From an uncultured bacterium (lineage in GTDB: Bacteria > Armatimonadota > HRBIN16), in NCBI GenBank assembly GCA_964579145.1, contig CAZOGB010000002.1, positions 592 through 64,591 on the forward strand: 64,000 nucleotides of DNA, read 5' to 3'. This document shows, piece after piece, positions 8,102 to 57,935 of the stretch; position 1 is the first letter of the stretch; each line of letters begins with the position of its first letter. A program made the position numbers and the translations under genes. The notes under the pieces are model-generated. The model was not told the DNA's origin. It made no database searches and saw nothing but the letters and a program-made list of their open reading frames with translations.

Positions 8102-8198
8102 TTTCTGTAAGGGAACGAACGTTTCCTTGCGTCAGGCAGGGTTTTGCCGTCTGCAGGTTTAACCTGATAACCAGCATACGCGAGCGAGGGGGTAAGCG

Positions 8199-10691: not shown

Positions 10692-10692
10692 T

Positions 10693-11202
10693 TCAGGCAA
10701 GCTGCGATTCGAGAAACTGCTGGAAGCGTGATAGGTCCTCCTGCACGATGCTCCAGCGATCGAACACTGCCTGCCTCAACTGCGCCACCCGTTGAGGGTC
10801 CAGAGTGTAAGTGTAGGAATGGCGAAACACATGGCGGAAGCCTCGCAGGTCGTCCAGCAGTTTGAAACTGTCGGAAGAGACCAACCGTGGGCGTATCGTT
10901 GGCACATCAATGCTCATGCGCCGTAACAGGTCCCGATGGTAGCTTCCGCCCGGTTCCAGCTGATTCTCAAATGCGCTGGCGACCTCCTCGAACAGGTCTT
11001 CTACAGCCGAATACAGGTTGTGCAGGTAGTAACCTGTGACGACAACGCGCTCCTGATTATCCGGCTGGGTCGCCTGAAGGCTCTGCAGGATGTTATCGAT
11101 GACCTGCATCTGGTTCTGAAAGTAGCCCAGTAACAGGGCGATTGCCTCGCGCTTCACAGAATCCTCAGCCCCCTCTGGATAATCTGCTCCCTGAACAGGC
11201 AT
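10693..11202 (-). CDS. hepT: HepT-like HEPN toxin (DUF86 / nucleotidyltransferase substrate-binding family)
   Basis: Rx4HxY motif (RHVFRHSY) near the C-terminus; immediately downstream of, and overlapping, the MntA-like gene. Confidence 0.65.
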   Translation of the reverse strand: MPVQGADYPEGAEDSVKREAIALLLGYFQNQMQVIDNILQSLQATQPDNQERVVVTGYYLHNLYSAVEDLFEEVASAFENQLEPGGSYHRDLLRRMSIDVPTIRPRLVSSDSFKLLDDLRGFRHVFRHSYTYTLDPQRVAQLRQAVFDRWSIVQEDLSRFQQFLESQLA

Positions 11203-12310: not shown

Positions 12311-13015
12311 CTATTCCAGCATCTGCGCCAATTGCACCGCACGTGCAAAGACGCTGTTCAGCATCTCGCGGGTAAGCTTGCCGGTGAAGGTGTTTTGCTG
12401 ACTGGGATGGTAACTGCACAACAGCCAGCGACCGTCTCTAAGTGGTAGCTCTGCCCCATGAGCGAACGCCGATGGCTTCCACGAGTGATCTAAGCCTATA
12501 TCCTTCAGTGCCCGCAGTGTCCACTCAAAAGCCACTCGCCCCAGCACCACAATGACCCTCCATCCATGCACGCACCGGAGAGTGGCTTTCATCCAGTGCT
12601 GGCAGTTCTGCAGTTCTTCGCGGGTGGGCTTATTGGCAGGCGGGACACAGTGCGCCACGGCGGTGATAAACGCATCGCGCAGTTCCAGCCCGTCGTCCCG
12701 CTGGGTGCTGGTAGGCTGATTGGCTAAGCCTGCTTCGTATAGCGCCCGAAACAGCCAGTTGCCGCTCTCGTCGCCGGTGAAGATGCGCCCGGTCCGGTTG
12801 CCTCCGTGAGCTGCTGGCGCCAGCCCGACCACCAGTATTCTTGCATCAGGGTCGCCGAAGTTTGGCACAGGCTTGCCCCAGTACTCCCAGTCGCGATAGG
12901 CACGGCGTTTCGTCTGTGCCACCTGCCTGATATAGTCCACCAGCCGGGGGCACTTCTCGCAGGCGGTGATTGCCACGTTCAGCTTGCGTGCGCACCTGCC
13001 TCCGTCCCCTACCAT
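12311..13015 (-). CDS. uracil-DNA glycosylase, family 5 (UdgB-type, Fe-S)
   Basis: GLAPAAHGGNRTGRIFTGDESG motif (the GLAPA variant that defines family 5) and CEKCPRL cluster cysteines; start trimmed to the ATG at 13015 to remove an Arg-rich antisense extension. Confidence 0.7.
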   Translation of the reverse strand: MVGDGGRCARKLNVAITACEKCPRLVDYIRQVAQTKRRAYRDWEYWGKPVPNFGDPDARILVVGLAPAAHGGNRTGRIFTGDESGNWLFRALYEAGLANQPTSTQRDDGLELRDAFITAVAHCVPPANKPTREELQNCQHWMKATLRCVHGWRVIVVLGRVAFEWTLRALKDIGLDHSWKPSAFAHGAELPLRDGRWLLCSYHPSQQNTFTGKLTREMLNSVFARAVQLAQMLE

Positions 13016-13941
13016 CGCTTCACCTCCACCTGCGACAACAGGTCGCGAATCTGCTCTGCCGCGCCGATATCGGAGCCGTCGGTCATGGCGGTCGCGGCGC
13101 CCGCTGCGGTGCCCCAACGGATGGCTTCCTCGACCCCTCCGCCGCGAATCAGCACGCTCAAAAAGCCCGCTATCATCGAATCGCCCGAACCGATAGTGCT
13201 GATGGCTTTGACCTTCGGAGGTATCGCGTACCAGCAGCCTTCCCCGCTGGCTACCGCCGCGCCCTTCTCGCCGATAGAGACGATAACCACCTGCGTACCT
13301 CGCTGGTGCAGTTCCTGCGCAGCGCGGGCGGCGTCCTCTATGGTGTCAATGGGGCGACCCAGCAGGCGTTCTGTCTCCGTCTCGTTGGGCTTGATCAGGA
13401 AGGGCTGGGCAGTTAAGCCCTGTATCAGCGGCTCGCCGTCGGCGTCCAGTACCACCTTGGCGCCTCCGAACTGTCCAATGCGAGCGAGGGTTGCATAGAT
13501 ATCGGTGGGAACTCCCGGCGGCAGGCTACCGCCCAGCGCAACGAACTCCGCTTCGCGAGCCAGCAACGCCACTGTGTCCAGAAGCCCCTGCAGTTCCTCT
13601 GCCGACACTTGCGGTCCGCGCTCGTTAAGACAGGTGGGCGGTGAACCGTCCTCCTCCTGAATGGCGAGGTTGATGCGGGTATCGCCCTGCACCCACACGA
13701 AGTCGCAGGGGATGCCCTCCTGCTCCTGTAGTTCGCGCTGGATGTAGCGACCTGTTCGCCCTCCCAGAAAACCTGTTGCGGTCACGGGCACGTCCAAGCG
13801 CTTCAGCACCCGTGCTACGTTCACGCCCTTTCCGCCGACGTCCTCCTCTATTTTCAGGATGCGGTTGGTATCGTGTGCCACCAGCTGCTTGACGTAGATG
13901 AGCCGGTCTACCGAAGGGTTCAATGTGACGGTGAGGATCAT
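13009..13941 (-). CDS. 1-phosphofructokinase / tagatose-6-phosphate kinase (PfkB family)
   Basis: Ribokinase/pfkB signatures: GGKGxNVA at the N-terminus and a TIGSGDSMIAGF anion hole. Confidence 0.7.
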   Translation of the reverse strand: MILTVTLNPSVDRLIYVKQLVAHDTNRILKIEEDVGGKGVNVARVLKRLDVPVTATGFLGGRTGRYIQRELQEQEGIPCDFVWVQGDTRINLAIQEEDGSPPTCLNERGPQVSAEELQGLLDTVALLAREAEFVALGGSLPPGVPTDIYATLARIGQFGGAKVVLDADGEPLIQGLTAQPFLIKPNETETERLLGRPIDTIEDAARAAQELHQRGTQVVIVSIGEKGAAVASGEGCWYAIPPKVKAISTIGSGDSMIAGFLSVLIRGGGVEEAIRWGTAAGAATAMTDGSDIGAAEQIRDLLSQVEVKRW

Positions 13942-21746: not shown

Positions 21747-21771
21747 AAAAAGGGGCGGCTTGCGCCGCCCC
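21747..21771 (-). terminator. rho-independent terminator of the CBS-domain gene
   Basis: On the minus strand: GGGGCGGC-GCAA-GCCGCCCC followed by TTTTT; starts 14 nt after the stop at 21785. Confidence 0.7.
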
Positions 21772-36446: not shown

Positions 36447-37229
36447 ATGGCGCGTGCAATCAAGCCAAAGCTGGCGGTCTGGAAGTTTGCTTCATGCGAC
36501 GGGTGTCAGCTCAGCCTGCTGGACTGTGAGGAAGAACTGCTGGAGGTCGCTGGCGCAATAGAGATTGCCTACTTTCCCGAAGCGAGCCGGGCGGTAGTGC
36601 GGGGACCCTACGACATCTCGCTGGTGGAAGGTTCCATCACCACTCCACACGATGCCGAGCGCATCCACCAGGTGCGCCGGGCGTCGCGTTTTCTGGTCAC
36701 TATCGGTGCGTGTGCGACTGCCGGGGGCATTCAGGCACTGCGCAATTTTAAGGATGTTCAGGAGTTCATCCGGGCGGTGTATGCGTCTCCGCAATACATC
36801 GAAACCCTGAGCAAATCCACCCCCATCCGCGACCATGTGTTTGTGGATTACGAGCTTCGGGGTTGCCCTATTAACAAATATCAACTGCTGGAAGTCATCA
36901 ACGCTTATCTCAACGGGCGCAAGCCGAACATCGCTCCACACAGCGTGTGCACGGAGTGCAAGCGGCGTGGCATTGTGTGTGTGATGGTGGCGAACGGCAC
37001 GCCCTGCCTTGGACCCGTCACCCATGCGGGATGCGGCGCCATCTGCCCTTCTTATCGGCGCGGATGCTACGGGTGCTTTGGTCCCAAGGAAACGCCCAAC
37101 CCCGCTGCGCTGAGCAAGCGTTGGAAGCAGCTCGGCGTGAAAGAGGATAACCTGGTGCGCGCCTATCGCAGTTTCAACGCCTATTCGGAAGCCTTCCGAC
37201 GAGAGAGTGAAAGCCATGAAAGGTCATAA
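36447..37229 (+). CDS. hydD: [NiFe]-hydrogenase small (delta) subunit, group 3
   Basis: [26 protein letters not shown] is the Nuo20k/hydrogenase small-subunit proximal-cluster motif; 260 aa. Confidence 0.8.
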
Positions 37230-38505
37230 CATCCGGGTAGATTATCTGGCAAGAGTGGAGGGCGAAGGCTCTCTGCATGTTCGCTTCAGGGGCGGAAAAC
37301 TGGAGGAAGTGCATTTTAAGATTTTCGAGCCTCCTCGCTTCTTCGAGGCGTTTTTGCGCGGGCGAAGCTATCATGAAGCACCGGACATCACCGCCCGAAT
37401 CTGCGGCATCTGCCCGGTGGCCTACCAGATGAGCGCAGCGCACGCGATGGAAGATGCCTTTGGCGTGAAAGTGGAAGGGCCCATTCGCGACCTGCGCCGA
37501 CTGATATACTGCGGCGAATGGATAGAGAGCCACGTGCTTCACGTCGCCCTGCTTCACGCCCCGGACTTTCTGGGCTATGAAGACGCCATCCAGATGGCGC
37601 GAGAGCATCCGCAAATCGTGCAGACCGCCTTGCAGCTGAAAAAGGTGGGCAACGACCTGGTGAACCTCATCGGCGGGCGCGAGATACATCCGATAAACGT
37701 GAAAGTGGGAGGCTTCTACAGGGTTCCCCGTCGGCGCGACCTGGACGCGATTGAAGAGCGTTTAAAGTGGGCGCGCGACGCTTCGGTTCAGCTGGTTAAG
37801 TGGGCGGCGAGCCTGCCCATTCCTGACTTCGAGCAGGATTACGAGTTTGTGGCTCTGCAACACCCCGCAGAGTATCCGATGAACGAAGGCAGGCTCGTCT
37901 CGAATAAAGGGTTGGACATCGCCATAGATGAGTTCGAGACTCACATCGTCGAAGAGCATGTGCCCTACTCCAACGCTCTGCACGCGCGTATCGCCAGACG
38001 TGGAGCCTATCTGGTGGGACCGCTGGCGCGGTTCAACCTCAATTTCGCGCGACTATCGCCGCTGGCGCAGGAGGCTGCCAGAGAGGTTGGCGTCGTTCCT
38101 CCCTGCCGTAACCCGTTCCAGAGCATCGTGGTTCGCGCCATCGAAACCCTCTATGCGTGCGACGAGGCTCTGCGTATCATTGAACACTACACCATGCCGA
38201 ACAAGCCGGCTATAGACATACGTCCTTGCGCGGCGACCGGGCATGGATGCACTGAAGCCCCGCGCGGCATCCTCTACCATCGCTATCGCGTGGATGAATA
38301 CGGCACCATTCTGGACGCCCGAATCGTGCCGCCTACTGCCCAGAACCAGAAAACCATTGAGGCGGACCTGCGGAGCCTGATTGAGGCGAATCCTGACCTG
38401 CCGCTGGAACAGCTACAGTGGCGATGCGAGCAGGCGATACGCAACTACGATCCGTGTATCTCCTGCGCCACACACTTCCTGAAAATCAACATACAGAGGG
38501 AATAG
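37207..38505 (+). CDS. hydA: [NiFe]-hydrogenase large (alpha) subunit, group 3b
   Basis: N-terminal [10 protein letters not shown] and C-terminal DPCISCATH Ni-binding CxxC pairs; 432 aa. Confidence 0.85.
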
Positions 38506-38628: not shown

Positions 38629-39105
38629 TGGGGTGACTTTTGACATAGGGCACAAATGGCTCCATGAACCGCTGGCTTATCTGGCTGATACTTTGCATAC
38701 AGGGCATTTACGACCTGTCGTTAACGGGGCTGGCGCGGATGACCGCAACAGCTGGTCAGGACTCGTTACAACGGCTGCACGCGGTGTACTGCCACTGCCA
38801 ACACTGCTCGGACATCCACAGCTGCTGTTGCGTGCCCCACAAGCAGGTCATCACCGAAGCAGCCGTGCGCCAGTGTGACCCGTCTCCAGCAGCCAAAGTA
38901 GCCAATACGTGGGCATTTCGGCTGGTAAGCCAGCTGCCGACTGAAGTGCCGCTGTGTATCTCGTCTGAAGAGGCTGGTGGCTACGTACCCAGCTATCACG
39001 ATACCTTTGTGCTACCTCCTGAACCTCCTCCGCGTGGTGTCTGAGAAGACTCGTGTCTGCCAACTTTTCTCGGACATTACAAAACCAGCAAGAGGAGGTC
39101 AGGAA

Positions 39106-39846
39106 ATGCTTCGCAAGGGTTTTACGCTCATTGAACTTCTGGTGGTTATCGCGATTATCGCGATACTTGCCGCCATCCTGTTGCCTGTGTTCTCACAGGC
39201 TCGTGAGAAGGCGCGCGCTGCCGCCTGCCTGTCCAACTGCCGGCAGATGGGTATCGCGGTGCAACTCTACGTTCAGGACTACGACGAGACGATGCCGACA
39301 GTGAGGATGATGTGGCCTGGTATGCCTCAACCGCCTGTCAGCTGGCTCGAGCAGCTGCAGCCCTATGTGCGGACGCCTCTGCTACAACGCTGTCCCTCAG
39401 ACAGCAGCCCGGCGTGGCAGGCAAACCCGCCTCGCGTTTCTTCTTACGGGCTGAACGCCTACTTCGATCCCTTCCATGCCCCGTACGGCGACCACCTGGC
39501 GCCTCGTCCGCTGGCGCTTGCGTCCGTTGCTCGACCCGCCCAGTGTATCTACATCGCCGAACTGGCAGAGGTCAACCGCAAAAACGGAATGCCCATTAAA
39601 GCGGACCACTTTATGCCCATGTACTGGGGTAATCCGCCGCGGGTGATGGATATGATGATGAACGCCATGATGTGGGATGCCAATGCGCAGATACCCACCA
39701 CACTCGCCATCGCGCGCCACCAAGGCGGGGCAAACTATGTCTTTGTGGACGGGCATGCGAAGTGGCATCTGTTCGGGCAAACCTGGCAACAGAGAACAGG
39801 TGAAGTACCTCTCGTTGACTGGTACGACCCGATGCGCGCCGAATAG
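39106..39846 (+). CDS. DUF1559 (H-x9-DG) protein with a prepilin-type N-terminal cleavage/methylation domain
   Basis: [49 protein letters not shown] is the type-IV-pilin-like N-terminus typical of DUF1559; start at the ATG at 39106, 7 nt after AGGAGG; the upstream part of the track ORF is removed. Confidence 0.75.
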
Positions 39847-44057: not shown

Positions 44058-45479
44058 CTACGGGGAAAGGAAAATGGTGGCATCGGCTGGCATTCCGGGC
44101 TTCAGCTCATGGCGCGGGTTTGCCAGCGTAATCTTCACGCCGAACACCAGCCTCACTCGCTCCTCCCTGGTCTGGACGTTCTTCGGCGTAAACTCCGGCT
44201 TGTCAGCGATTTCGGAGACCTTCCCCTCAAACCGGTTACCGGGAAAGGCGTCCACCACCACCTCGGCGCGGTCGCCCAGCTTCACGCGCATGTCAGGCTC
44301 GGGAACGTACACCTTCAGCCATACGCTATCCAGATTGGCGACGCGAACGATGGGCATTCCGGGCGTGACCAGCTCACCCTGCTCGGCGACCTTGAGGATG
44401 ACTCTCCCTGCCACGGGAGACCGAACGGTCAGGTGCTCGCGAAGCGCCTTTGCCGACTCCAGTGCGCCCCGTGCCTGTTCCACCTGTGCCCTCGCCGCTT
44501 GGATAGTCTCTTCGCGGGCGCCAGCGAGCAGGAGTTGCAGACGGGCGCGGGCAGCCGATACTGCTTCCAGCGCGGTGCGGTACTGTGTGCGCGCCTGTTC
44601 CAGCTGCTGTTTGGTCACCAGGCGGTCGGTATAGAGCTCTTTCACCACCTGCAGGTTGAGGCGTGCCCCTTCCATCTGCGCACGTGCCTGCGCTTCCGCT
44701 GCGCGTGCCTGTTCGCGTTCTTCCACGCGGGCACCAGCCTGCAGTTCTGCCAGCTTTGCCTCCGCCGCCGCAAGCGCCGCCCACGCGGTATCCCGTCGTG
44801 CGATGGCGGAGTCCATCTGCTGTCTGGAAATGGCTCCCGTTGCGAACATGTTCTGGGCACGCTCCACATCCTGCTGTGCGTTGATATACTGTGCTTTTGC
44901 CTGTTCAACGGCGGCGCGAGCCTGCTCTATCTGCTCCACACGCGCCCCGGCTTCCACCATCTCCAATCGCGCCTTCGCCTGCTTGTAGGCGTTCTCGGCA
45001 ACCTCATAAGCGGATTGGGCGTTGACCAGCTGTGCTTTCAGCTCCGTCGCTTTGGCGAACATCTCCTGAACCGTTGCCAGCGTCCGGCGTGCTCCCTCCG
45101 CGGCTGCCTCCGCCTGCGCCAGGTTCGCCTGCGCCTGACGTATCTCTTCTTCCCGCGCTCCCTTCAGCAGCTCTGCCAGCCGTGCCTGAGCCGCTCGGTA
45201 GGCTCCCTCCGCCTGAAGCACCTGTGCCTCCAGCTCCCTGCCGTCCAGAACGGCGATAACCTGCCCTGCCTGCACCTCGTCGCCCTCGTCAACCAGCAGT
45301 TTGAGGATGCGCCCTGTGGTTTTCGCGCTGACGTCTACCTCGGTGGCTTCAATGGTGCCGCTGGCGAGGATAACGTTGCCCGGCGGAGCAGGGCGCGAAA
45401 GCACCACACGCCACACCGCAAAGCCCGCTATCACCAGCGCAATCAGCACCAGCACACGAGACGCCCTGCCGTGTTTCAT
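44058..45479 (-). CDS. HlyD-family membrane-fusion (periplasmic adaptor) protein with a long coiled coil
   Basis: N-terminal TM, biotinyl-lipoyl-like halves, an extended A/E/R/Q-rich coiled coil, and a C-terminal beta-barrel. Confidence 0.75.
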   Translation of the reverse strand: MKHGRASRVLVLIALVIAGFAVWRVVLSRPAPPGNVILASGTIEATEVDVSAKTTGRILKLLVDEGDEVQAGQVIAVLDGRELEAQVLQAEGAYRAAQARLAELLKGAREEEIRQAQANLAQAEAAAEGARRTLATVQEMFAKATELKAQLVNAQSAYEVAENAYKQAKARLEMVEAGARVEQIEQARAAVEQAKAQYINAQQDVERAQNMFATGAISRQQMDSAIARRDTAWAALAAAEAKLAELQAGARVEEREQARAAEAQARAQMEGARLNLQVVKELYTDRLVTKQQLEQARTQYRTALEAVSAARARLQLLLAGAREETIQAARAQVEQARGALESAKALREHLTVRSPVAGRVILKVAEQGELVTPGMPIVRVANLDSVWLKVYVPEPDMRVKLGDRAEVVVDAFPGNRFEGKVSEIADKPEFTPKNVQTREERVRLVFGVKITLANPRHELKPGMPADATIFLSP

Positions 45480-46114
45480 CGCCGAATGCCCTCCAGAAGC
45501 AGATTCGCGAACACCTCCGCGTACTCTTCCGCACTGTGCCTCGGCAAAATCTGTTCTTTGGTCCCCTCACTGCACGCCAGCAGATGGTCAAACAGGATGG
45601 TCATCCAGAACGCCCCCACCAGCATCCGCGCGGCAATCTCCACCGGCACCTCGCGAAAAGCCCCCTCCTGCATCCTTCTGGAAAGGTACTCCTTCACTAT
45701 GCTCGATGCGGGGCGAATGACCTCCTGCATCAACTGCTCGGCTACCTGCTCGTCGTGCATCGCCTGGGGAAGCAGTGCCCTCAGAAGGTCGGCGTACCGC
45801 TCTCCAAAGCGTATCCTGTCCCGGAAGAGCGAGCGCAATACCTCCGGGTCATTCGTTTCCTGCGACGCCGAGAGGATGTCTTTCAATACCGGCAGGCTTG
45901 CCTGCCCCAGCAGGGCGAAAAGCAAGTGGCGCTTGGAGGGGAAATGAATGTAAATGGTTCCTTCCGCCACTCCGGCTTCCTGAGCAATCATGCGCGTGGT
46001 GGTGGAATCGTATCCCCGCTGGGCGAACAGCCGCAACGCTGCCTGAAGGATTGCCTCTTTTGTGTCTTTTGCTCCTCTGCGTCTGCCTTTTTGTGATGGT
46101 GCGGCGCACATCAT
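45476..46114 (-). CDS. TetR-family transcriptional regulator
   Basis: TetR HTH (TKEAILQAALRLFAQRGYDSTTTRMIAQEAGVAEGTIYIHF); first gene of the efflux operon. Confidence 0.8.
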   Translation of the reverse strand: MMCAAPSQKGRRRGAKDTKEAILQAALRLFAQRGYDSTTTRMIAQEAGVAEGTIYIHFPSKRHLLFALLGQASLPVLKDILSASQETNDPEVLRSLFRDRIRFGERYADLLRALLPQAMHDEQVAEQLMQEVIRPASSIVKEYLSRRMQEGAFREVPVEIAARMLVGAFWMTILFDHLLACSEGTKEQILPRHSAEEYAEVFANLLLEGIRR

Positions 46115-46125
46115 TTCTCCTTATG

Positions 46126-46145
46126 ATGAGTGAGCACTCACTCAT
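46126..46145. promoter_or_regulatory. probable TetR operator (perfect 9-2-9 palindrome ATGAGTGAG-CA-CTCACTCAT)
   Basis: Perfect inverted repeat 12 nt upstream of the tetR start codon, in the divergent tetR / hycI intergenic region. Confidence 0.55.
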
Positions 46146-46219
46146 ATATTACTCGCCACCTCTGGCATTGTCAAGAGGAGCGGGGCGCGTGCAGAACAAA
46201 TTATGCCGAGGAGGATTCC

Positions 46220-46684
46220 ATGCACAGGACACTTCTTATCGGGATTGGCAACGTTTACCGCAGAGACGACGGCGTGGGCATCGTGGCGGTGCGTCGGGCG
46301 CGCTCCCTGCTCCCCCCGTCGGTGGAGGTGTTGGAGTGGACGGGCGACCTCATGACGCTTCTGGAGATATGGCAGGGTTCCCGCTGTGTTGTGGTGGATG
46401 CGCTTCGTTCAGGAGGCACGTCAGGACAGATACTCCGCATGGAGGCGCACCGTGAACCGTTGCCTGTGGAAGGGCGCTTCTTCTGCACGCACTCGATTGG
46501 GCTGGAGGAGGTTATTGCTCTGGCGCATGTGCTGAACAAACTGCCGGTGGAGCTGATACTGTACGGCGTGGAGGGTAGCGACTTCGGCGAAGGCGAAGGG
46601 TTGTCGCCAGAGGTCGAAAAGGCAACGGATGATGTGGTACGATATATCCTGCAGGACGTTATGAAGGACAGGGCAGATGCATGA
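46220..46684 (+). CDS. hycI: hydrogenase maturation endopeptidase (HycI/HybD family)
   Basis: LLIGIGNVYRRDDGVG...HSIG motifs of the hydrogenase C-terminal maturation proteases; start at the ATG at 46220 after GAGGAGGA. Confidence 0.75.
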   Translation: MHRTLLIGIGNVYRRDDGVGIVAVRRARSLLPPSVEVLEWTGDLMTLLEIWQGSRCVVVDALRSGGTSGQILRMEAHREPLPVEGRFFCTHSIGLEEVIALAHVLNKLPVELILYGVEGSDFGEGEGLSPEVEKATDDVVRYILQDVMKDRADA

Positions 46685-47036
46685 GTTCTCGATAGCCGAG
46701 GCAATCGTGCGCACCAGTGAAGAGGTGCTGAGAGCGAACGGCGGCGGCAAGGCGGAAAAGGTGCATTTGCGCATCGGCGAGCTGCGTCAGGTGGTTCCCG
46801 ACGCGCTGACCTTTGCCTTTGACATCCTGAAAGAAGACACCCTGCTGGCGGATGCGTCGCTGGAGTGGGAGACCGCACCTGCGCAGGTGCGCTGCAGGTC
46901 CTGCGGGACGGAATATCATCCGAGAGATGTTTTCTGGGAGTGTCCTTCATGCGGCGCGATAGGCGCGGAGGTGGTGGCAGGCGAGGAGCTGGAGATACTG
47001 GCCATTACTCTGGCAGGAGGTTCAGATGGAGATTAA
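46677..47036 (+). CDS. hypA: hydrogenase nickel-incorporation protein HypA
   Basis: MHEFSIAEAIV N-terminus and the CRSCG...CPSCG zinc site. Confidence 0.85.
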   Translation: MHEFSIAEAIVRTSEEVLRANGGGKAEKVHLRIGELRQVVPDALTFAFDILKEDTLLADASLEWETAPAQVRCRSCGTEYHPRDVFWECPSCGAIGAEVVAGEELEILAITLAGGSDGD

Positions 47037-47688
47037 GGTTGTGCGGCGAATAATGGAGGCGAACGAACAGCACGCGGAGGTGGTGCGCCAGCGGCTGCGA
47101 GAGGCAGGCGTGGTGGCACTAAACCTCATCAGCGCACCCGGCTCAGGCAAAACGTCGTTAATCGAGTGCGCTATTCGCGAGCTGAAGGGCAAGGTGAACA
47201 TAGGCGTTATTGAAGGCGACCCCGACACCACCCGCGACGCCGAACGCATCGCCCGGCTGGATGTACCCGTCGTGCAGATTAATACCGAGGGCGGCTGTCA
47301 CCTGGAGGCGACGATGGTTCTGCGCGCGCTGGATGAAATAGACCTGAACGCCCTGCAGTTGCTATTTATCGAGAACGTGGGCAATCTGGTATGTCCGGTA
47401 GTGTTTGACCTGGGCGAAACGCATCGGGTGGCGGTGGTCAGCGCCGCGGAGGGTCACGATAAGCCCGCTAAATACCCTGCCCTGTTCCGCACCGCGCAGG
47501 TGACTGTGTTAAACAAAGTGGACCTGATACCCTATCTGGACTTTGACGAGTCGCAGTTTACCGCCGACGTACGCCGGCTGAACCCCGATATGCCGATACT
47601 GCGCGTGTCCTGTCGCACCGGCGAGGGAGTGGTGGAATGGGTCCGTTGGCTGGAGGGCTTGTTGAATAAAGAGGCTGTCACGCAGTAG
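47026..47688 (+). CDS. hypB: hydrogenase nickel-incorporation GTPase HypB
   Basis: P-loop SAPGSGKTSLIE, ENVGNLVCP and NKVDL G-motifs. Confidence 0.85.
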   Translation: MEIKVVRRIMEANEQHAEVVRQRLREAGVVALNLISAPGSGKTSLIECAIRELKGKVNIGVIEGDPDTTRDAERIARLDVPVVQINTEGGCHLEATMVLRALDEIDLNALQLLFIENVGNLVCPVVFDLGETHRVAVVSAAEGHDKPAKYPALFRTAQVTVLNKVDLIPYLDFDESQFTADVRRLNPDMPILRVSCRTGEGVVEWVRWLEGLLNKEAVTQ

Positions 47689-47708
47689 GTCTTACGAGAC
47701 AGCACCTG

Positions 47709-49979
47709 TTGAGCATGTCACATTCGGTCCAGCGCGTTCGTCTGGTTATTCGAGGGGCGGTACAGGGCGTGGGGTTTCGCCCGTTTGTGTTCCGCCTGGC
47801 GACCGAGCTCGACTTGCGGGGGTGGGTGCTGAACTCGGCGCAGGGCGTCTTCATCGAGGTGGAGGGCGAACCGGCTCTGCTCCAGCAGTTCGTGAAACGT
47901 CTCTATCACGAGTTGCCCCCACGCGCTTTCATCCAGAGCATGGAGCAGTCGGTTCTTGACCCCGCTGGCTACACCGCTTTCGAAATCCGTCACAGCGAAG
48001 AGACTGGCGAAAAGAGCGCACTCATCCTGCCCGACATCGCCACCTGCGCCGATTGCCTGCGCGAAATCTTCGACCCCGCCAACCGCCGCTACCGCTATCC
48101 CTTCACCAACTGCACAAACTGCGGTCCGCGCTACAGCATCATTGAGTCCCTGCCCTACGACCGCCCGAACACCACCATGAAGGCGTTCACCATGTGCGCG
48201 AAGTGCCGGGAGGAGTACGAGAACCCGCTGGACCGGCGATTCCACGCTCAACCGAACGCCTGCCCAGAGTGCGGTCCACGTCTGAATCTCTGGGACGAGC
48301 AAGGCGGTGTGCTGGCACAGTATGACGAGGCTCTGCGCAGGGCGGCGGATGCCATCCGCGAGGGGCGTATTGTGGGAGTAAAGGGGCTTGGGGGCTTCCA
48401 TTTGATAGTAGACGCCCGCAATGAGCAGGCTGTTCGTCGGCTCCGTGAGCGCAAGCGACGGGAGGAGAAGCCATTTGCGCTGATGTATCCCTCTCTGCAG
48501 ATGGTGCGGGCACACTGCTGGGTAGACGAAGCGGAAGAACGCGTGCTCACCTCGCCCGAATCGCCGATTGTCCTCCTGCGCCGCAAGGGGGATGCCGACA
48601 TTGTTCCTTCGGTTGCGCCCGTCAACCCCTATCTGGGCGTGATGCTCCCCTACACTCCCCTGCACCACCTCCTGCTTGCCGAACTGGGCTTTCCGGTTGT
48701 TGCCACCAGCGGGAACCTGTCGGATGAGCCTATCTGCACGGACGAATACGAGGCACTCCAGCGTCTCGCCGGCATCGCCGACCTGTTTCTGGTGCACAAC
48801 CGACCGATTGCCCGTCATGTGGACGACTCGGTGGTGCGCGTGCTAATGGGGCGTGAAATGGTGTTGCGGCGGGCGCGCGGCTATGCGCCTCTGCCTGTTC
48901 TGGTAAAGGAGCCTCTGCCTCCCCTGCTGGCCGTGGGTGCGCACCTGAAAAACACCGTCGCGCTGAGCGTGGGCAGGCAGGTTTTTATCAGCCAGCATAT
49001 CGGCGACCTGGAGACCCCACAGGCGCTGGAGGCGTTCCGGCGCGTGATTGCCGACGTGCGTGCCCTTTGGGAGCACCAGCCGCAGGCGGTAGCGTGTGAC
49101 ATGCACCCCGATTACCTCTCCACGCAGTCTGCGCACCGCATGGGGCTTCCCCTCGTGAGCGTTCAGCATCACTACGCGCACGTGCTGGCGTGCATGGCGG
49201 AGAACGAGGTCGCACCTCCCGTGCTGGGCGTCTCGTGGGATGGCACGGGCTACGGCGCCGACGGCACGGTGTGGGGCGGCGAGTTCCTGCTGGTGACCGA
49301 AACAGGCTTCGAGCGGGTGGCGCACCTGCGACCATTCCGCCTGCCCGGTGGTGACCGCGCCCCCAAAGAGCCTCGCCGCTCCGCGCTGGGAGTGCTGTAT
49401 GAAATGCTGGGCGAGCAGGCGTTTGACCTGCTGGGCAACCTGTTCACCCCTCGCGAGCGGCATCTTCTGGCGCAGATGCTCAGGCAGGGCGTGAACGCTC
49501 CCATCACCACCAGCGCGGGCAGGCTGTTTGACGCGGTGGCATCGCTGGTCATCGGGCGGCAGGTGGTGAACTTCGAAGGGCAGGCGGCGATGGAGCTGGA
49601 GTTCCTCGCCCATTCCGCACAGGGTGACGACTCGTATCCCTTCAGGTTGTCAGAGGGAACTCCGCGCGTGCTGGACTGGTCACCGACGGTGGAGGCAATC
49701 TTGCAGGATGTCCAGCAGGGTGCGGAGCCTTCATGGATTGCCCTGCGCTTTCACAACGCCCTGGTGGAGATGGTGGTGGCGGTGGCGAAGGCGGTCGGTG
49801 TGGAGCGGATTGCGCTCAGCGGGGGCTGTTTCCAGAACGCCTATCTGACCGAGCGGGCGGTGCGTCGCCTCACCGAAGAGGGCTTTCGCATGTACTGGCA
49901 TCAGCGCGTTCCTCCCAACGACGGCGGCATCGCGCTAGGACAGTTGGTGGGGGCAGGACACCTGCTGCCTAAAGGTTGA
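47709..49979 (+). CDS. hypF: [NiFe]-hydrogenase maturation carbamoyltransferase HypF
   Basis: Acylphosphatase domain, two CxxC Zn fingers, a YrdC-like domain and a Kae1-like domain; 756 aa. Confidence 0.9.
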   Translation: MSMSHSVQRVRLVIRGAVQGVGFRPFVFRLATELDLRGWVLNSAQGVFIEVEGEPALLQQFVKRLYHELPPRAFIQSMEQSVLDPAGYTAFEIRHSEETGEKSALILPDIATCADCLREIFDPANRRYRYPFTNCTNCGPRYSIIESLPYDRPNTTMKAFTMCAKCREEYENPLDRRFHAQPNACPECGPRLNLWDEQGGVLAQYDEALRRAADAIREGRIVGVKGLGGFHLIVDARNEQAVRRLRERKRREEKPFALMYPSLQMVRAHCWVDEAEERVLTSPESPIVLLRRKGDADIVPSVAPVNPYLGVMLPYTPLHHLLLAELGFPVVATSGNLSDEPICTDEYEALQRLAGIADLFLVHNRPIARHVDDSVVRVLMGREMVLRRARGYAPLPVLVKEPLPPLLAVGAHLKNTVALSVGRQVFISQHIGDLETPQALEAFRRVIADVRALWEHQPQAVACDMHPDYLSTQSAHRMGLPLVSVQHHYAHVLACMAENEVAPPVLGVSWDGTGYGADGTVWGGEFLLVTETGFERVAHLRPFRLPGGDRAPKEPRRSALGVLYEMLGEQAFDLLGNLFTPRERHLLAQMLRQGVNAPITTSAGRLFDAVASLVIGRQVVNFEGQAAMELEFLAHSAQGDDSYPFRLSEGTPRVLDWSPTVEAILQDVQQGAEPSWIALRFHNALVEMVVAVAKAVGVERIALSGGCFQNAYLTERAVRRLTEEGFRMYWHQRVPPNDGGIALGQLVGAGHLLPKG

Positions 49980-50005
49980 CTTTTCTTCCCCCTTCGTGGT
50001 AAAAT
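49976..50005 (+). promoter_or_regulatory. sigma70 promoter with an extended -10 (TTGACT-18-TGgTAAAAT)
   Basis: The -35 overlaps the hypF stop codon; a hairpin (CCCCA-TGTT-TGGGG) lies in the 5'UTR, then AAGGAGG and the GTG at 50113. Confidence 0.45.
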
Positions 50006-50925: not shown

Positions 50926-50983
50926 CACCTGAACGTGGGCGGAGCCTCTGCGCTCCGCCTTTTCCATCCATGGGGGACGGGAC

Positions 50984-53966: not shown

Positions 53967-55022
53967 ATGGATGGTTTACACCTGTTGAATCTGGGACTGG
54001 GTAGTCTGCCTCTGCTCTCGTCGGCGGAAACGCGCTCCATCTCTGCCGAGAACCCCACCGGCGAGCGCGGAGGCGGCGCCAAAGCGGAACCCGATGAGCA
54101 TAACGCCGCGTCCATGCTGGGTAAAGGCTGGAAGGTGCGTCCCTGTATCACACTTGACCCAGGTACCGTCACTACCTTAGCCGACATCACCGGACCGGGT
54201 ATTATCCAGCACATCTGGATTACGGTGGACGTGAAGGCATACCGGGATACGATACTGCGCATGTACTGGGATGACGAGACCTCGCCCTCCGTCGAGGTGC
54301 CACTGGGCGATTTCTTCTGCAACGGTCATGGCTTGCGCTATAACGTTGTCTCCATCCCGATTGCGGTCAACCCGTCGGGCGGGTTCAACTGCTACTTCCC
54401 GATGCCGTTCCGCAAGCGGGCAAAAATCACTATCGAGAACCAGCGCTGGGAGCCGATAGGCGGCTTCTTCTACCAAATTACCTACGCCCTCACTGAAGTG
54501 CCCGACAACGTCGCCTATCTGCACGCTCAATGGCGACGCTCAATGACCACGCGCGAACGCCCCGAGCATGTGATTCTGGACGGCGTGAAGGGTCAGGGAC
54601 ACTATGTGGGCACTTTTCTGGCATGGACGCAGCTTTCCGATGGCTGGTGGGGCGAAGGCGAAATCAAGTTCTATATGGACGGTGATACCGAGTATCCCAC
54701 CATCTGCGGCACGGGCACGGAGGACTACTTCTGCGGGGCGTGGTGTTTTGGCGAAACGTTCAACGCGCCGTTTACGGGCTATCCCCTGTGGCAGCGCGAG
54801 CCGGGCGCCGTGCCCAAACACGGGCTGTATCGCTGGCACATCATGGACCCCATCCGCTTCAAGCAGAGCCTGAAGGTGACCATTCAGGCGTTAGGCTGGT
54901 GGCCCAACGGTAAGTTCCAGCCGCTGACCGACGACATCGCCTCGGTCGCGTACTGGTATCAGGCGGAACCGCACGCACCCTTCCCCGTCCTGCCGCCGCC
55001 GCATGAACGCTGGTCGCGTTAG
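53967..55022 (+). CDS. DUF2961 / glycoside hydrolase family 172-like protein
   Basis: Jelly-roll DUF2961 signature stretches (GPGIIQHIWIT...; GEGEIKFYMDGD...GTGTEDYF); start at the ATG at 53967 after GAGGAGGA. Confidence 0.6.
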   Translation: MDGLHLLNLGLGSLPLLSSAETRSISAENPTGERGGGAKAEPDEHNAASMLGKGWKVRPCITLDPGTVTTLADITGPGIIQHIWITVDVKAYRDTILRMYWDDETSPSVEVPLGDFFCNGHGLRYNVVSIPIAVNPSGGFNCYFPMPFRKRAKITIENQRWEPIGGFFYQITYALTEVPDNVAYLHAQWRRSMTTRERPEHVILDGVKGQGHYVGTFLAWTQLSDGWWGEGEIKFYMDGDTEYPTICGTGTEDYFCGAWCFGETFNAPFTGYPLWQREPGAVPKHGLYRWHIMDPIRFKQSLKVTIQALGWWPNGKFQPLTDDIASVAYWYQAEPHAPFPVLPPPHERWSR

Positions 55023-55029
55023 CACACAG

Positions 55030-55051
55030 CCCCTGCGACGGGTCGCAGGGG
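55030..55051. terminator. bidirectional intrinsic-terminator-like hairpin (CCCCTGCGAC-GG-GTCGCAGGGG)
   Basis: Perfect 10-bp inverted repeat 8 nt after the GH172 stop, in a convergent gene gap. Confidence 0.5.
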
Positions 55052-55112
55052 CTTAGGACGTCCCCCTGCTTGCGGGGGGACTACAGGGGGGCGGACCACA
55101 TCCGTCATGGAG

Positions 55113-55240
55113 CAAACCCCTCTCCCGACCTCTCCCCGACGCGGGGAGAGGTGATGCGCCCCTTCCTTCGCAGGGAAGGGGCTGGGGGTTAGGTTGGCTC
55201 AAACCCCTCTCCCGACTTCTCCCCAACGCAGGGGAGAGGT
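55113..55240. repeat. two copies of a roughly 40-nt hairpin-forming direct repeat (CAAACCCCTCTCCCGACyTCTCCCCrACGCrGGGGAGAGGT), 87 nt apart, with another hairpin between them
   Basis: R1 at 55113-55152 and R2 at 55200-55240 differ at 3 positions; each folds as a 9-bp stem (CCTCTCCCC / GGGGAGAGG); an intervening hairpin CCCCTTCC-TTCGCAG-GGAAGGGG lies at 55159-55181. Confidence 0.6.
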
Positions 55241-55244
55241 AGCG

Positions 55245-57935
55245 TCAACGTGGGTTAACCGGACGGCGCACCTGAGCTGTTACCTCATACCACAGCGTCT
55301 GGTACTGGGGACCAATCTCAATCACCGCCCTGCCGTTAAAATCGCTGGATATTGGCAGTCGCGTCTTGCGTGCACCGCGGCCGTCCAGCGCCCATGCCTG
55401 TACCATGCTGGCTGGCATCGGCAGGGTGATGCGGGCTTGAATGCCCTCCACCAGCGAAGGCGCACTGCCCCAGTTATTGCGCACCGTCACACGGTTATCG
55501 CCCAGCTCCTCCCAGCCCCAGCCGGTGTTCTGGACGTAACCTGTGGCGGTAATCAGCACCTGCACCGTCTGGGTGGGATTCGCGCTCAGCGCGCCCTGCT
55601 TGACCGTCAGCGTGATGACGCCGAAGCCGTTCTGGCGGGTATCGCCGGGCTCCACGCGCACGCCGTCGCCCAGATCAAACGTTCGCCCTCCACCGAAACC
55701 GACCACCGCCTTGGAGCGGGGCGCGGAGAGCGTAACCACTCCCCTGCCCGCGGTGGCCAGGTCCCACACCAGCTGTCCCGTGTCCGCCACGAAGAGACTG
55801 GTGTTGACGTTGACCTGCTCTGGTCGCAGGGCATCGGCAGGCACGCTCTGTCCCTCTACCGCTACCGCCAGCCGGTGCAGAAGCCCCATCTCGCCGCGCA
55901 AGCCTGTGTCCGCTCCGTCTACCAATCGCCACGCCCAGCTGCCTCGCAGAGCCTGCACTTCCTGCTCCTTGCTCAGGGAGACCACCACCTGCCTCTGCGC
56001 GGGGGCAACGTCCCCTCGCAGGAACATCGCCGCCGCGGCAACCATAGCAATCCACTGTGTCGGGTGCTGGTCGATGTCAAAGAAACCGGTAATCATGCGC
56101 GCGTCGAGGTGATCGTTGCGATGGGCGTAGGTGTAGAAGTAGATGGCATCCCAGTCCTGCAGAAGCCCGTAGGCGGCAGCGAGTATCAGGCCCTCGCTGG
56201 TATAGGTGTTGGGCGCGGGATGGTTGTACTCGCTGACGGTGTGTGGCTTGCCCAGCACGCGCTTGGTCGACAGCCACGATAGAGTGCCGCCGCGTTCGTT
56301 CACCATTGGGATGTTGCGGATGTACCAGTTGTTCATGTCCCAGCTTCCGCCCGGGAACTCGGGATGCTGCCAGTAAGCATGGGTATCCACGAGGTCCATC
56401 GTCGTCATCAGATTGGGAGTGGTACATCCGATGATGGTGCCGGTCACCAGCGCGCGCACGCCGAGAGTGCTCTTCAGATATTCGCGCATCTCCGTCCAGT
56501 AGCGTGCTTCGGTGTCCCACAGGAAGCGGAGCCAGTCTTTCTGGATGGCTTCTGGCGTGCTGCCCCAATTACTGCGCAGGACGTTCGCCACGCTTTTTGT
56601 TTCCAGATTCTGGTCGGGTGGGAGCACGCGCAATGTGCCTCCCGGGCGCAGCGAAACGCCCGTAATCCAGTAGGTTCCAGTCTGGGTGCCCATGTTGGTA
56701 AAGAGCACGCGGGCGTTGTTATCGCTCTGGGAGACCATAAAGGTAATCTCGAAGCGGCGCCATTGCGTGTTCAGGCTGAACGTGTGCCAGCCGTCCAGAG
56801 CCTGCCAGGGGTCATGTGCCATCGTGACAGTGGCGATGATGTTGCGCGAAGTGTTTGCCTTTGCCCAGAACGAGAGCGTGTAGAGCCGCCCGCCTTCTAC
56901 CGTGAGACCCGGTTGTGTCCACTGCACATGCCAGCTTTCGGTGCCCGGCTGGGTGACCTGTATTCTGACAGAGCGGGTGTAGCCTGATGGAGCATCAGTG
57001 CTCTGGGTAGCGGATGCAACCGCGCCTGCGTGTTGCTCCAGATACCAGCCGTTCAGCCCATTCGTGTAGTTGCCGTTGGTGAGCATTTCGTTGCCCAACG
57101 GCTCCGAGCGTTCACCCCATGCCTGACGCAGGTTCTCGGTGTTGCCGTATTTAGCGATGAGCCACTCGTTCCACTGTCGCTGAAGGTCGGCACGAAAGAT
57201 GGCGGGGATGCGGTCAGTGACGCCTCCCAGGAAGCCGTGTATCAGCCCGTTTTCGTTGTTTATCTCCACGAACGCCACCGCCGGGTCCTGGGCGTAGGTC
57301 AGCCCGGTATAGGGGTTGCGGTGCGTGAGCACCAATCGCGCGTATTCCTTCTGCAGTTCCGTCAGGGGCTGATAGAAGAAACCGATGACATGCTGGTCCT
57401 TCATGTCGGTCACGCTGTCTATCTCCTGTGGCAGTCCGTCCTGCGAGGAGAACAGCCGGTGCACCACCAGGTTGATGTTGGCGTAAACACCCAGCTTCTT
57501 CAACTGCGCGAAGAAGTAGTCCAGCCGGTCTAAGGCATCGGGATTCAGAGTGCGTGAACCGCCTGCGGCGTAGTTGATCAGGGATGGACTGGACCACGGC
57601 GCGTCCATGTGGTGGAAGCGTACTACGTTCACCCCTGCCTTTGCCAGCCGCATTGCCACTTTCGGCGCGTTCGTTTTCTGCTGGAAGCAGGCGTTTGCCG
57701 TCATGTTCACGCCCCAGAAGCGGATGCGCTGTGCGCCGACGTAGAAGTGTCCATCCTGCCCGACGTGCACGTAGCCAAACTTGCCCGCCGGTCGGTGCAG
57801 GAAAACGCTCATATCCGCCACACCCGAAGGCGTGGAATCCCATGGTACCCAGAAAGGAAAGACGTTGTCCTGACCCTGTGCACCCATCGTCAGCATCAGG
57901 ATGAGACACGACGTCAGCCCAATGCTTCTTATCAT
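55245..57935 (-). CDS. secreted GH5-like (cellulase-family) glycoside hydrolase with an inserted carbohydrate-binding-module-like domain
   Basis: Signal peptide; GH5 (beta/alpha)8 motifs (VVRFHHMD; NENG); a central CBM4/9-like beta-sandwich; 896 aa. Confidence 0.55.
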   Translation of the reverse strand: MIRSIGLTSCLILMLTMGAQGQDNVFPFWVPWDSTPSGVADMSVFLHRPAGKFGYVHVGQDGHFYVGAQRIRFWGVNMTANACFQQKTNAPKVAMRLAKAGVNVVRFHHMDAPWSSPSLINYAAGGSRTLNPDALDRLDYFFAQLKKLGVYANINLVVHRLFSSQDGLPQEIDSVTDMKDQHVIGFFYQPLTELQKEYARLVLTHRNPYTGLTYAQDPAVAFVEINNENGLIHGFLGGVTDRIPAIFRADLQRQWNEWLIAKYGNTENLRQAWGERSEPLGNEMLTNGNYTNGLNGWYLEQHAGAVASATQSTDAPSGYTRSVRIQVTQPGTESWHVQWTQPGLTVEGGRLYTLSFWAKANTSRNIIATVTMAHDPWQALDGWHTFSLNTQWRRFEITFMVSQSDNNARVLFTNMGTQTGTYWITGVSLRPGGTLRVLPPDQNLETKSVANVLRSNWGSTPEAIQKDWLRFLWDTEARYWTEMREYLKSTLGVRALVTGTIIGCTTPNLMTTMDLVDTHAYWQHPEFPGGSWDMNNWYIRNIPMVNERGGTLSWLSTKRVLGKPHTVSEYNHPAPNTYTSEGLILAAAYGLLQDWDAIYFYTYAHRNDHLDARMITGFFDIDQHPTQWIAMVAAAAMFLRGDVAPAQRQVVVSLSKEQEVQALRGSWAWRLVDGADTGLRGEMGLLHRLAVAVEGQSVPADALRPEQVNVNTSLFVADTGQLVWDLATAGRGVVTLSAPRSKAVVGFGGGRTFDLGDGVRVEPGDTRQNGFGVITLTVKQGALSANPTQTVQVLITATGYVQNTGWGWEELGDNRVTVRNNWGSAPSLVEGIQARITLPMPASMVQAWALDGRGARKTRLPISSDFNGRAVIEIGPQYQTLWYEVTAQVRRPVNPR

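Follow-up and report, generated by a model that had tools for sequence, protein, structure and literature searches.

The 222-nt spacer at positions 55023-55244 of the window (the whole 64,000-nt stretch of Armatimonadota DNA analysed here) lies between the stop codons of two convergent genes and contains one unique hairpin, h1, plus four dispersed modules in the order A-B-C-B'. The gene on the left, a DUF2961/GH172 gene, runs on the plus strand from 53889 or 53967 to 55022 and ends in a TAG stop codon (55020-55022), and the gene on the right (55245-57935, minus strand) encodes an 896-aa secreted CBM_4_9 protein. These limits agree with the initial annotation of this DNA, which had placed a convergent intergenic region between the GH172 stop and a reverse-strand stop. 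It had also labelled the right-hand gene 'GH5', but Pfam shows CBM_4_9 as the sole detectable domain. An exact-protein look-up returned no match for the 896-aa protein, and the neighbouring genes matched same-strain Logan contigs. Genes were called with a caller weighted by third-codon-position GC. Two other convergent pairs in the window (10691/10693 and 29268/29275, from rough gene calls) are separated by repeat-free spacers. As these measure 1 and 6 nt, the 222-nt spacer is exceptional.

Five hairpins are packed into the spacer (Table 1). All of them had been noticed in the initial annotation, and most are stronger than it stated; its 'perfect 10-bp palindrome' is indeed perfect, although the arms are 12 nt long. 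The same annotation had reported a pair of direct repeats of about 40 nt with three mismatches. We counted two substitutions and one indel between the copies (55113-55152 and 55200-55240), and the similarity reaches upstream to 55108 and 55195. Folding of the whole spacer gave z = -6.6 for the plus strand and -4.75 for the minus strand relative to shuffled sequences, and the window has 15 perfect hairpins of 8 bp or more, 3 of which sit inside these 222 nt. A search for the ~40-nt unit and for its stem pattern found no further occurrence in the window, with 0 expected by chance, confirming that the unit does not recur there. Rfam gave no match at the gathering score in the window, nor a family at E up to 10; the best match in the spacer had E = 0.12 and 20 bits, against a threshold of 71 bits. 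The spacer feature is real and does not arise by chance.

Table 1. Hairpins, modules and linking sequence of the spacer (positions of the window; B and B' are written as plus-strand letters).
Feature	Position	Strand	Description
Hairpin h1	55028..55053	+	26-nt perfect palindrome; perfect 12-nt arms 55028-55039 / 55042-55053; 6 nt past the GH172 stop
Hairpin 2	55060-55081		10 bp including one G.T pair
Hairpin 3	55128-55152		11 bp, perfect
Hairpin 4	55158-55182		9 bp perfect plus one T.G pair
Hairpin 5	55215-55240		10 bp including one T.G pair
Module A, whole	55060..55093	+	hairpin and third arm
Module A, hairpin	55060-55081	+	GTCCCCCTGC-TT-GCGGGGGGAC
Module A, third arm	55084-55093	+	linker TA, then CAGGGGGGCG
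A-B spacer	55094..55116		last 9 nt TGGAGCAAA (55108-55116) recur before B' as TGGCTCAAA (55195-55203)
Module B	55117..55151	-	copy 1 of the direct repeat; CCCCTCTCC (55117-55125), CGA, CCTCTCCCC (55129-55137), GACGC, GGGGAGAGG (55143-55151)
Module C	55159..55193	+	Y stem CCCCTTCCT (55159-55167), loop TCGCA, R stem GGGAAGGGG (55173-55181)
Module C, third arm	55185-55193	+	linker CTG, then reverse-Hoogsteen arm GGGGTTAGG
Module B'	55204..55239	-	copy 2 of the direct repeat; CCCCTCTCC (55204-55212), CGA, CTTCTCCCC (55216-55224), AACGCA, GGGGAGAGG (55231-55239)

The hairpin h1 differs from the rest of the spacer. When folded as DNA it reaches -14.3 kcal/mol (z = -6.05), and no copy of it was found in the 105 repeat-bearing loci described below. 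An orthologous junction, L112, has another, different hairpin at the same position. h1 is not one of the dispersed modules and probably serves the GH172 gene as its own 3' hairpin; no other hairpin of the spacer is as good a candidate for such a gene-specific role, and in position h1 is equivalent to the ancestral gene-end hairpin.

The modules A, B and C, together with the relatives D and H from other genomes, share a three-armed organisation, in which a hairpin with a pyrimidine arm and a purine arm is accompanied by a third arm that mirrors the purine arm, repeating it in reversed order without complementing it. Such a design would allow one DNA strand to fold into an intrastrand purine-motif triple helix (G.G-C, A.A-T and T.A-T). 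BoxC of Escherichia coli (E. coli), which is the same as the potential intrastrand triplex (PIT) elements and the triplex motif TM_ECO, belongs to the class II intrastrand triplex motifs of the ITxF database (Holder et al. 2015, PMC4666352). The class II order is pyrimidine (Y) stem, loop, purine (R) stem, loop and reverse-Hoogsteen (RH) stem (PMC4666352). On the minus strand, B reads as Y stem CCTCTCCCC, loop GCGTC, R stem GGGGAGAGG, linker TCG and reverse-Hoogsteen stem GGAGAGGGG, with loops of 5 and 3 nt and 9/9 correct triplets. B' carries one mismatched triplet and stops 5 nt short of the CBM_4_9 stop codon. In C, 8/9 reverse-Hoogsteen triplets are correct and the hairpin includes one T.G pair. 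The third arm CAGGGGGGCG of A is a 10/10 mirror of its 3' arm GCGGGGGGAC.

An ITxF-like rule, re-implemented from the publication, was applied to the window (Y, R and RH in succession on one strand, with stems of 6-15 nt, loops of 1-6 nt and no more than one mismatched triplet; allowed triplets C-G.G, T-A.A and T-A.T). With stems of 8 nt or more, the rule called two motifs and no others in the 64 kb, namely B (minus strand, 55116-55151, 9-nt stems, no mismatch) and B' (55204-55239, 9-nt stems, loops 6 and 3, one mismatch); 100 first-order Markov simulations produced none. Module A was called at 55061-55091 as a weak class II triplex motif of the plus strand, with 7-nt stems and one G.T pair.

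The mirror relation between R arm and third arm, with A or T opposite A, was found in six module types: GGGGAGAGG/GGAGAGGGG, GGGAGAGGG/GGGTGAGGG, GGGAAGGGG/GGGGTTAGG, GGGGAGG/GGAGGGG or GGTGGGG, GGGGGAAGGG/GGGATGGGGG and GCGGGGGGAC/CAGGGGGGCG. Alternation between A and T opposite A-T pairs, as in GGAGGGG vs. GGTGGGG, is confined to the third arm, and the R arm shows no A-to-T change. This pattern fits the reverse-Hoogsteen rules and not Watson-Crick pairing. In addition, the length of the C-run in arm 1, a part that the search pattern did not cover, goes with that of the G-run in the R arm (Fisher p = 2e-7 for copies that are not independent), a correlation that is confounded by relatedness and significant only before related copies are collapsed. 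The modules are candidate triplex motifs on the ground of sequence; the folding tools used here model Watson-Crick pairs only. Purine-motif triplexes do not form in RNA (PMC4666352), and a pyrimidine-motif reading of B would require protonated cytosines; any triplex would therefore be a phenomenon of single-stranded DNA. G-quadruplex and i-motif structures were considered and rejected: by inspection, B, C and D give two-tetrad quadruplexes only, and nuclear magnetic resonance (NMR) of TM_ECO favoured the triplex.

The dispersal of the modules was evaluated by scanning one genome per GTDB species for exact matches to a 21-nt core of B, CCCCTCTCCCGACYTCTCCCC; the repeat-bearing loci of relatives, and all counts made from them, are drawn from the core matches listed and are lower bounds. 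The core lies in more than 105 genome stretches among the matches listed, from at least 9 phyla. The repeat is thus not unique to this locus, and the suggestion in the initial annotation that it belongs to a dispersed family of extragenic palindromes holds. An arm of the GGGGAGAGG type, which was outside the search pattern, follows downstream in 96 of the 112 core occurrences (loci plus window). Loop length in the core-bearing copies varies between 2 and 37 nt, and each genome has its own flanks. Among the matches listed, exact cores number 21 in the Chthonomonadia metagenome-assembled genome (MAG) Ch118 (Armatimonadota), 11 in an unclassified MAG (CAKZNX) and 13 in MAG038 (Pseudomonadota). 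The core is present in Alphaproteobacteria, Gemmatimonadota, Planctomycetota, Acidobacteriota and Bacteroidota, further hosts being Longimicrobium, Ignavibacteria, Chloroflexota and Dormibacterota, and it was also found in the isolates Phenylobacterium terrae and Sphingomonas deserti. These two and Nostoc sp. UHCC 0926 are closed genomes with modules. About 85 of the 112 B cores fall outside predicted open reading frames (ORFs), and most of the others lie near the 5' ends of ORFs that are possibly over-extended.

Copies of the individual modules were counted by blastn-short with consensus sequences against all loci. This gave 16 copies of A in 12 loci, 40 copies of B in 29 loci and 23 copies of C in 20 loci. 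Moreover, about ten Ch118 loci contain a match, 77-96% identical, to the composite of about 140 nt at 55056-55196, and an AA dinucleotide precedes B nearly always in the relatives. One match in a plasmid collection is a 1-Mb Nostoc replicon (pn1) carrying the same B-C pair, with the arms conserved, including the mismatch in GGGGTTAGG, and the loops different. Viral contigs yielded 1 match in 2.9 million, and spread via phage is on this ground effectively excluded. Within 441 kb of unselected GH172 loci only 5 triplex motifs were found, 4 of them in one locus. The motif distribution is patchy, which is typical of the triplex-motif class.

Two further similarities came to light during these searches. 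The metagenome contig L135 carries four TM_ECO-like motifs (GGGAGAGGG / GGGTGAGGG) at 3524-3673 and 5118-5150, one of which lies about 70 nt downstream of a GH172 homologue and so forms an independent link to the 3' end of this gene family. The stretch 39104-39291 of the window, within an ORF on the plus strand (38977-39846), shows 72-84% nucleotide similarity to several Ch118 and CAKZNX loci. It was rejected as a repeat, as it encodes a prepilin-type methylation motif and the start of a DUF1559 domain, the N-terminus of a multi-copy gene family.

The relatives contain five additional module types (D, E, F, G and H), and their modules are grouped into 29 clusters of 2-10 units each. Every adjacent pair in these clusters is co-oriented (108/108), despite 35 different neighbour orders; B followed by C is the commonest pair and was seen 17 times. 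The triplex-bearing strand of B, D and H is opposite to that of A and C. This makes B-C an inverted pair, like the BoxC pairs of E. coli, with the third arms pointing outward. That the order varies while the relative orientation does not suggests insertion of a strand-specific and target-specific kind, or else recombination of arrays. Arrays in Ch118 reach 10 co-oriented modules, for example in L022 (5497-5915), L032 (2162-2492) and L102 (4766-5055), and the string E-B-C-D-A-H-G recurs in two Ch118 loci. The non-triplex modules of this genome are E (GGAGGGCGAACCTCCCGGTGAGCCG), F (a GTAG-tagged hairpin, GTAGGGGCAACCC...GGTTGCCC) and G (ACGGCTCGGCGGGAGCCTCGCCCTCC).

The gene context of the clusters was also evaluated. 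In Armatimonadota-type loci, 13 clusters lie in tandem spacers, 7 in convergent spacers and 1 in a divergent spacer, and 20 of the 21 adjoin the 3' end of one gene or more. Divergent spacers, which bear promoters, seem to be avoided. Clusters in tandem spacers are sense to the genes in 7 cases and antisense in 6, which indicates that the transcription strand has no influence.

Three metagenome relatives (L110, L111 and L112) share the convergent arrangement of the two genes, with GH172 91-92% identical and CBM_4_9 74-75% identical. None of the three junctions contains the modules (0/3). At the L112 junction the genes are 91 nt apart, with one 11-bp hairpin between them, and the junctions of L110 (2377-2976) and L111 (2440-3039) have a spacer of about 600 nt with two ORFs that, as read from the translations, resemble the toxin hicA and the antitoxin hicB. 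Since the array is absent from the orthologous junctions and other contents take its place, A-B-C-B' is a variable insertion. The GH172/CBM_4_9 spacer acts as an insertion hotspot. Furthermore, same-strain short-read contigs end within the array, at about 55084-55089 coming from the left and at about 55165 coming from the right; such breaks would be expected if the genome held more copies, although they are no proof of this.

A comparison with another locus and the wider surroundings of the genes can be added here. The locus L027 is syntenic with 5929-10694 and 12358-13932 of the window at about 75% nucleotide identity. As a filled/empty site pair with the window near position 5900 it fails, because the synteny stops at a gene boundary. 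The source organism is probably a relative of CAKZNX and Ch118. Upstream of the studied genes, at about 44300-50000, lie the hydrogenase maturation genes hycI, hypA, hypB-like cobW and hypF, and an ORF resembling the large subunit of a NiFe-hydrogenase occupies 37207-38505.

Taken together, we favour the interpretation that the spacer holds a mosaic array of BoxC/PIT/TM-class dispersed modules, inserted between convergent genes beside the GH172 gene's own 3' hairpin, and put its probability at roughly 0.6. The modules would be selfish or neutral passengers at the DNA level, accumulating where they are tolerated. They may fold when the DNA becomes single-stranded during replication or transcription, and such folding would pause polymerases and leave the site unstable and open to further insertions. 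In both convergent mRNAs they would be ordinary stem-loops, possibly protecting 3' ends, and not canonical terminators.

Several observations weigh against this interpretation. The source DNA shows one module cluster in 64 kb, and the closest relatives none in 22.8 kb. Module A passes the ITxF-like rule only at the weak stem length of 7 nt, and the window copy of C narrowly fails its limits (loop 1 of 7 nt, or two imperfect triplets); the C consensus of the relatives passes and was called as a triplex motif 7 times in Ch118. The third arm of B is a mirror at 9/9 positions, yet it is also a direct repeat at 8/9. As the arms are nearly symmetric, the third arm may merely provide an alternative Watson-Crick hairpin, and a hairpin-only comparison of mirror and direct readings treats both alike, each hairpin being seen on both strands. 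The instability of the site is inferred from three orthologous junctions only. Finally, the TM_ECO triplex was undetected in vivo by dimethyl sulphate (DMS) footprinting (PMC4666352).

An extension of this interpretation would make the three-armed modules (A, B, C and the relatives D and H) cosmopolitan, ultra-small mobile elements of 35-40 nt, which multiply as co-oriented mosaic arrays and whose strand-specific spread depends on recognition of the single strand folded as hairpin or triplex. The identity of the arms across phyla would then stem from a horizontally transferred mobilising enzyme or a universal host factor. The wide distribution of the B core and the B-C pair common to the source lineage (Armatimonadota) and Nostoc, with differing loops, bear on this proposal, which we hold to be unlikely; if true, it would supply BoxC-type repeats with a mechanism of spread.

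The convergent position and the very stable stems on both strands could instead belong to bidirectional terminators or insulators, in which stacked hairpins stop or pause polymerase arriving from both genes and protect the mRNA 3' ends. The frequent contact of the relatives' clusters with gene 3' ends also fits this explanation, and some other gene-end hairpins in the window likewise lack a T tract. However, none of the five hairpins is followed by a T/U tract (the bases behind the stems are TAGGAC, TACAGG, GATGCG, TGGGGG and AGCGTC), and a terminator scan of 55023-55244 made no call on either strand, although the window does have canonical hairpin-plus-T-run sites in other places (21752-21771, minus strand; 50938-50959, plus strand). 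One canonical example from the window consists of GGCGGAGCCTCTGCGCTCCGCC followed by TTTTCC. Moreover, a cluster in the relatives can hold as many as 10 modules, the modules face either way and lie in spacers that are tandem, convergent or even divergent, and the ortholog L112 manages with a single hairpin. PIT/BoxC elements have neither promoter nor terminator activity in E. coli (Hoyne and Maher, cited in PMC4666352). On account of the missing T tract, the indifference to orientation and the inactivity of PIT elements, the bidirectional-terminator function proposed in the initial annotation is unsupported, and we consider it improbable.

The mosaic of dispersed modules does resemble a bacterial interspersed mosaic element (BIME), as the initial annotation had suggested in calling the region 'REP/BIME-style', that is, built of repetitive extragenic palindromes (REPs). 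A stricter version of this idea, in which the modules are REP/REPIN substrates of a REP-associated tyrosine transposase (RAYT) and are excised and inserted as single-stranded hairpins, seems very unlikely. The modules are dispersed, extragenic, palindromic and clustered, the co-orientation of all 108 neighbouring pairs would fit strand-specific, target-specific insertion of single strands, and the neighbouring module type F of Ch118 has a GTAG tag before its hairpin. A RayT-like ORF fragment (E = 2e-6) also lies at 7694-7936 of L017, an Ignavibacteriaceae MAG, 3.6 kb from a B-type element at 4052-4084. By inspection, however, A, B and C have no GTAG or CGTC at the foot of the stem; the B stem is preceded on its 5' side by CCCG (plus strand) or CATC (minus strand), and CGTC occurs only within the minus-strand loop. 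The window copies B and B' are direct and do not form an inverted doublet. The modules do not look like classical REP/RAYT elements. In addition, tblastn with a single E. coli RayT query, a weak test, found no RayT-like ORF in the window, nor in the Ch118 and CAKZNX loci selected for B, which total about 214 kb. REP families are usually species-specific, unlike the arm sequences found here, which are common across phyla.

The third arm might instead serve as a second Watson-Crick partner in a two-state RNA or DNA switch, with mutually exclusive hairpins that mask, for example, a Shine-Dalgarno-like GGGGAGAGGAG. Folding showed that the C arm of A is able to pair with either G arm, and the C arms of A and of B' (minus strand) fold with the distal G arm. 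In L006, L008, L099, L101, L106, L107 and others, mostly Alphaproteobacteria, the core with its GGGGAGAGGAG arm stands 2-20 nt before predicted start codons, where the 3' arm resembles a sequestered ribosome-binding site. No start codon follows in the window, however, the genes being convergent; the modules occur in both orientations relative to genes, and at least as many B copies adjoin the stop codon of a converging gene as stand before starts. The search of Rfam gave no family match, and the confinement of A-to-T changes to the third arm, sparing the R arm, fits reverse-Hoogsteen pairing. We therefore regard a switch as highly unlikely.

A miniature inverted-repeat transposable element (MITE), as also proposed in the initial annotation, or a purely local duplication can be dismissed as scarcely credible: the two copies do lie 87 nt apart in one spacer and the ~140-nt composite recurs in relatives, but the unit is dispersed across genomes, the 35 neighbour orders are unexpected for one transposable unit, and neither terminal inverted repeats (around 55056-55244) nor target-site duplications, the latter without a systematic search, were seen.

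At a gene junction that is conserved in other respects, the array is a presence/absence variant, and such arrays are variable in order but strictly invariant in relative orientation. Co-orientation, the contrast between filled and empty sites and profiling across phyla offer handles on the mechanism of spread. There is also a practical side, in that the arrays break short-read assemblies and may be mis-called as small ORFs or terminators.

Among known systems, intrinsic terminators share with the spacer G/C-rich stem-loops just past stop codons that are usable on both strands where genes converge. They differ from it in that no U tract is present here, the family is multi-copy, and five hairpins stand where the ortholog has one. 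REP, BIME and REPIN systems are likewise made of short extragenic palindromes, mostly at gene 3' ends, in mosaic clusters with non-random relative orientation, whereas the modules lack the GTAG/CGTC tag, possess a third arm and have arm sequences common across phyla. Furthermore, BIMEs consist of alternating units, in contrast to the co-oriented adjacent units found here. In Nostocaceae, Elhai et al. in 2008 reportedly described very small dispersed repeats lying beside or inside one another in intergenic DNA. The B-C pair of the Nostoc replicon makes these repeats a lead only.

The closest likeness is to BoxC, PIT and TM elements, which were first described in the 1990s. The modules share with them three arms of about 9 nt (a C/T-rich Y stem, a loop of 3-6 nt, a purine R stem, a loop of 3 nt and a G/A/T mirror stem), as well as a G/C-rich, multi-copy and intergenic character and the lack of strand bias. 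Both are also spread patchily over related genomes, at loci that vary, and often come in pairs set close together on opposite strands. PIT elements were the subject of work by Hoyne, Maher and colleagues in 2000 and 2002 (cited in PMC4666352). TM_ECO is known from 3610 copies in 262 proteobacterial genomes, is always intergenic without strand bias, and is associated with locally raised genomic variability; its single-stranded oligonucleotides form a triplex by circular dichroism (CD) and NMR, with melting temperatures of 70-82 C (PMC4666352). Further triplex motifs rich in G/C abound in cyanobacteria and Thermus (PMC4666352).

At the level of the arms, the R arm GGGGAGAGGG of the 'A mm' type of TM_ECO has the 9-nt run GGGGAGAGG in common with B, and module D of Ch118 has Y, R and third-arm stems identical to those of the second BoxC copy in the hrpB-mrcB spacer of E. 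coli K-12, with different loops. Compared by inspection with the TM_ECO pattern CCCTCNCCC-N3-6-GGGNGAGGG-N3-GGGNGAGGG, B and C are out of register and their arms are different: the arms of B (CCTCTCCCC / GGGGAGAGG / GGAGAGGGG) are off by one in register, and those of C (CCCCTTCCY / GGGAAGGGG / GGGGTTAGG) do not fit. Module D, which is absent from the window, fits with one mismatch. BLAST of the B-C pair against 5,426 E. coli genomes found no match. Since B and C do not fit the pattern and have no match in E. coli, they are other members of the same class and not TM_ECO proper. The K-12 pair itself (NC_000913.3, 164547-164631; L193) carries no repeat annotation in RefSeq, an indication of how easily the class is missed.

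The modules depart from BoxC in three further respects. Their third arms point outward in the B-C pair and inward in the one K-12 pair that was read, in the hrpB-mrcB spacer; they line up, interspersed with non-triplex modules, in co-oriented arrays that reach 10 units; and their host here belongs to the Armatimonadota, whereas TM_ECO has been reported only in Proteobacteria. The BoxC architecture, with nearly the same arms, occurs well beyond Proteobacteria and Cyanobacteria. The class as such is already known and widespread; the host lineage and the arm variants are new, and co-orientation is an added rule of its organisation.

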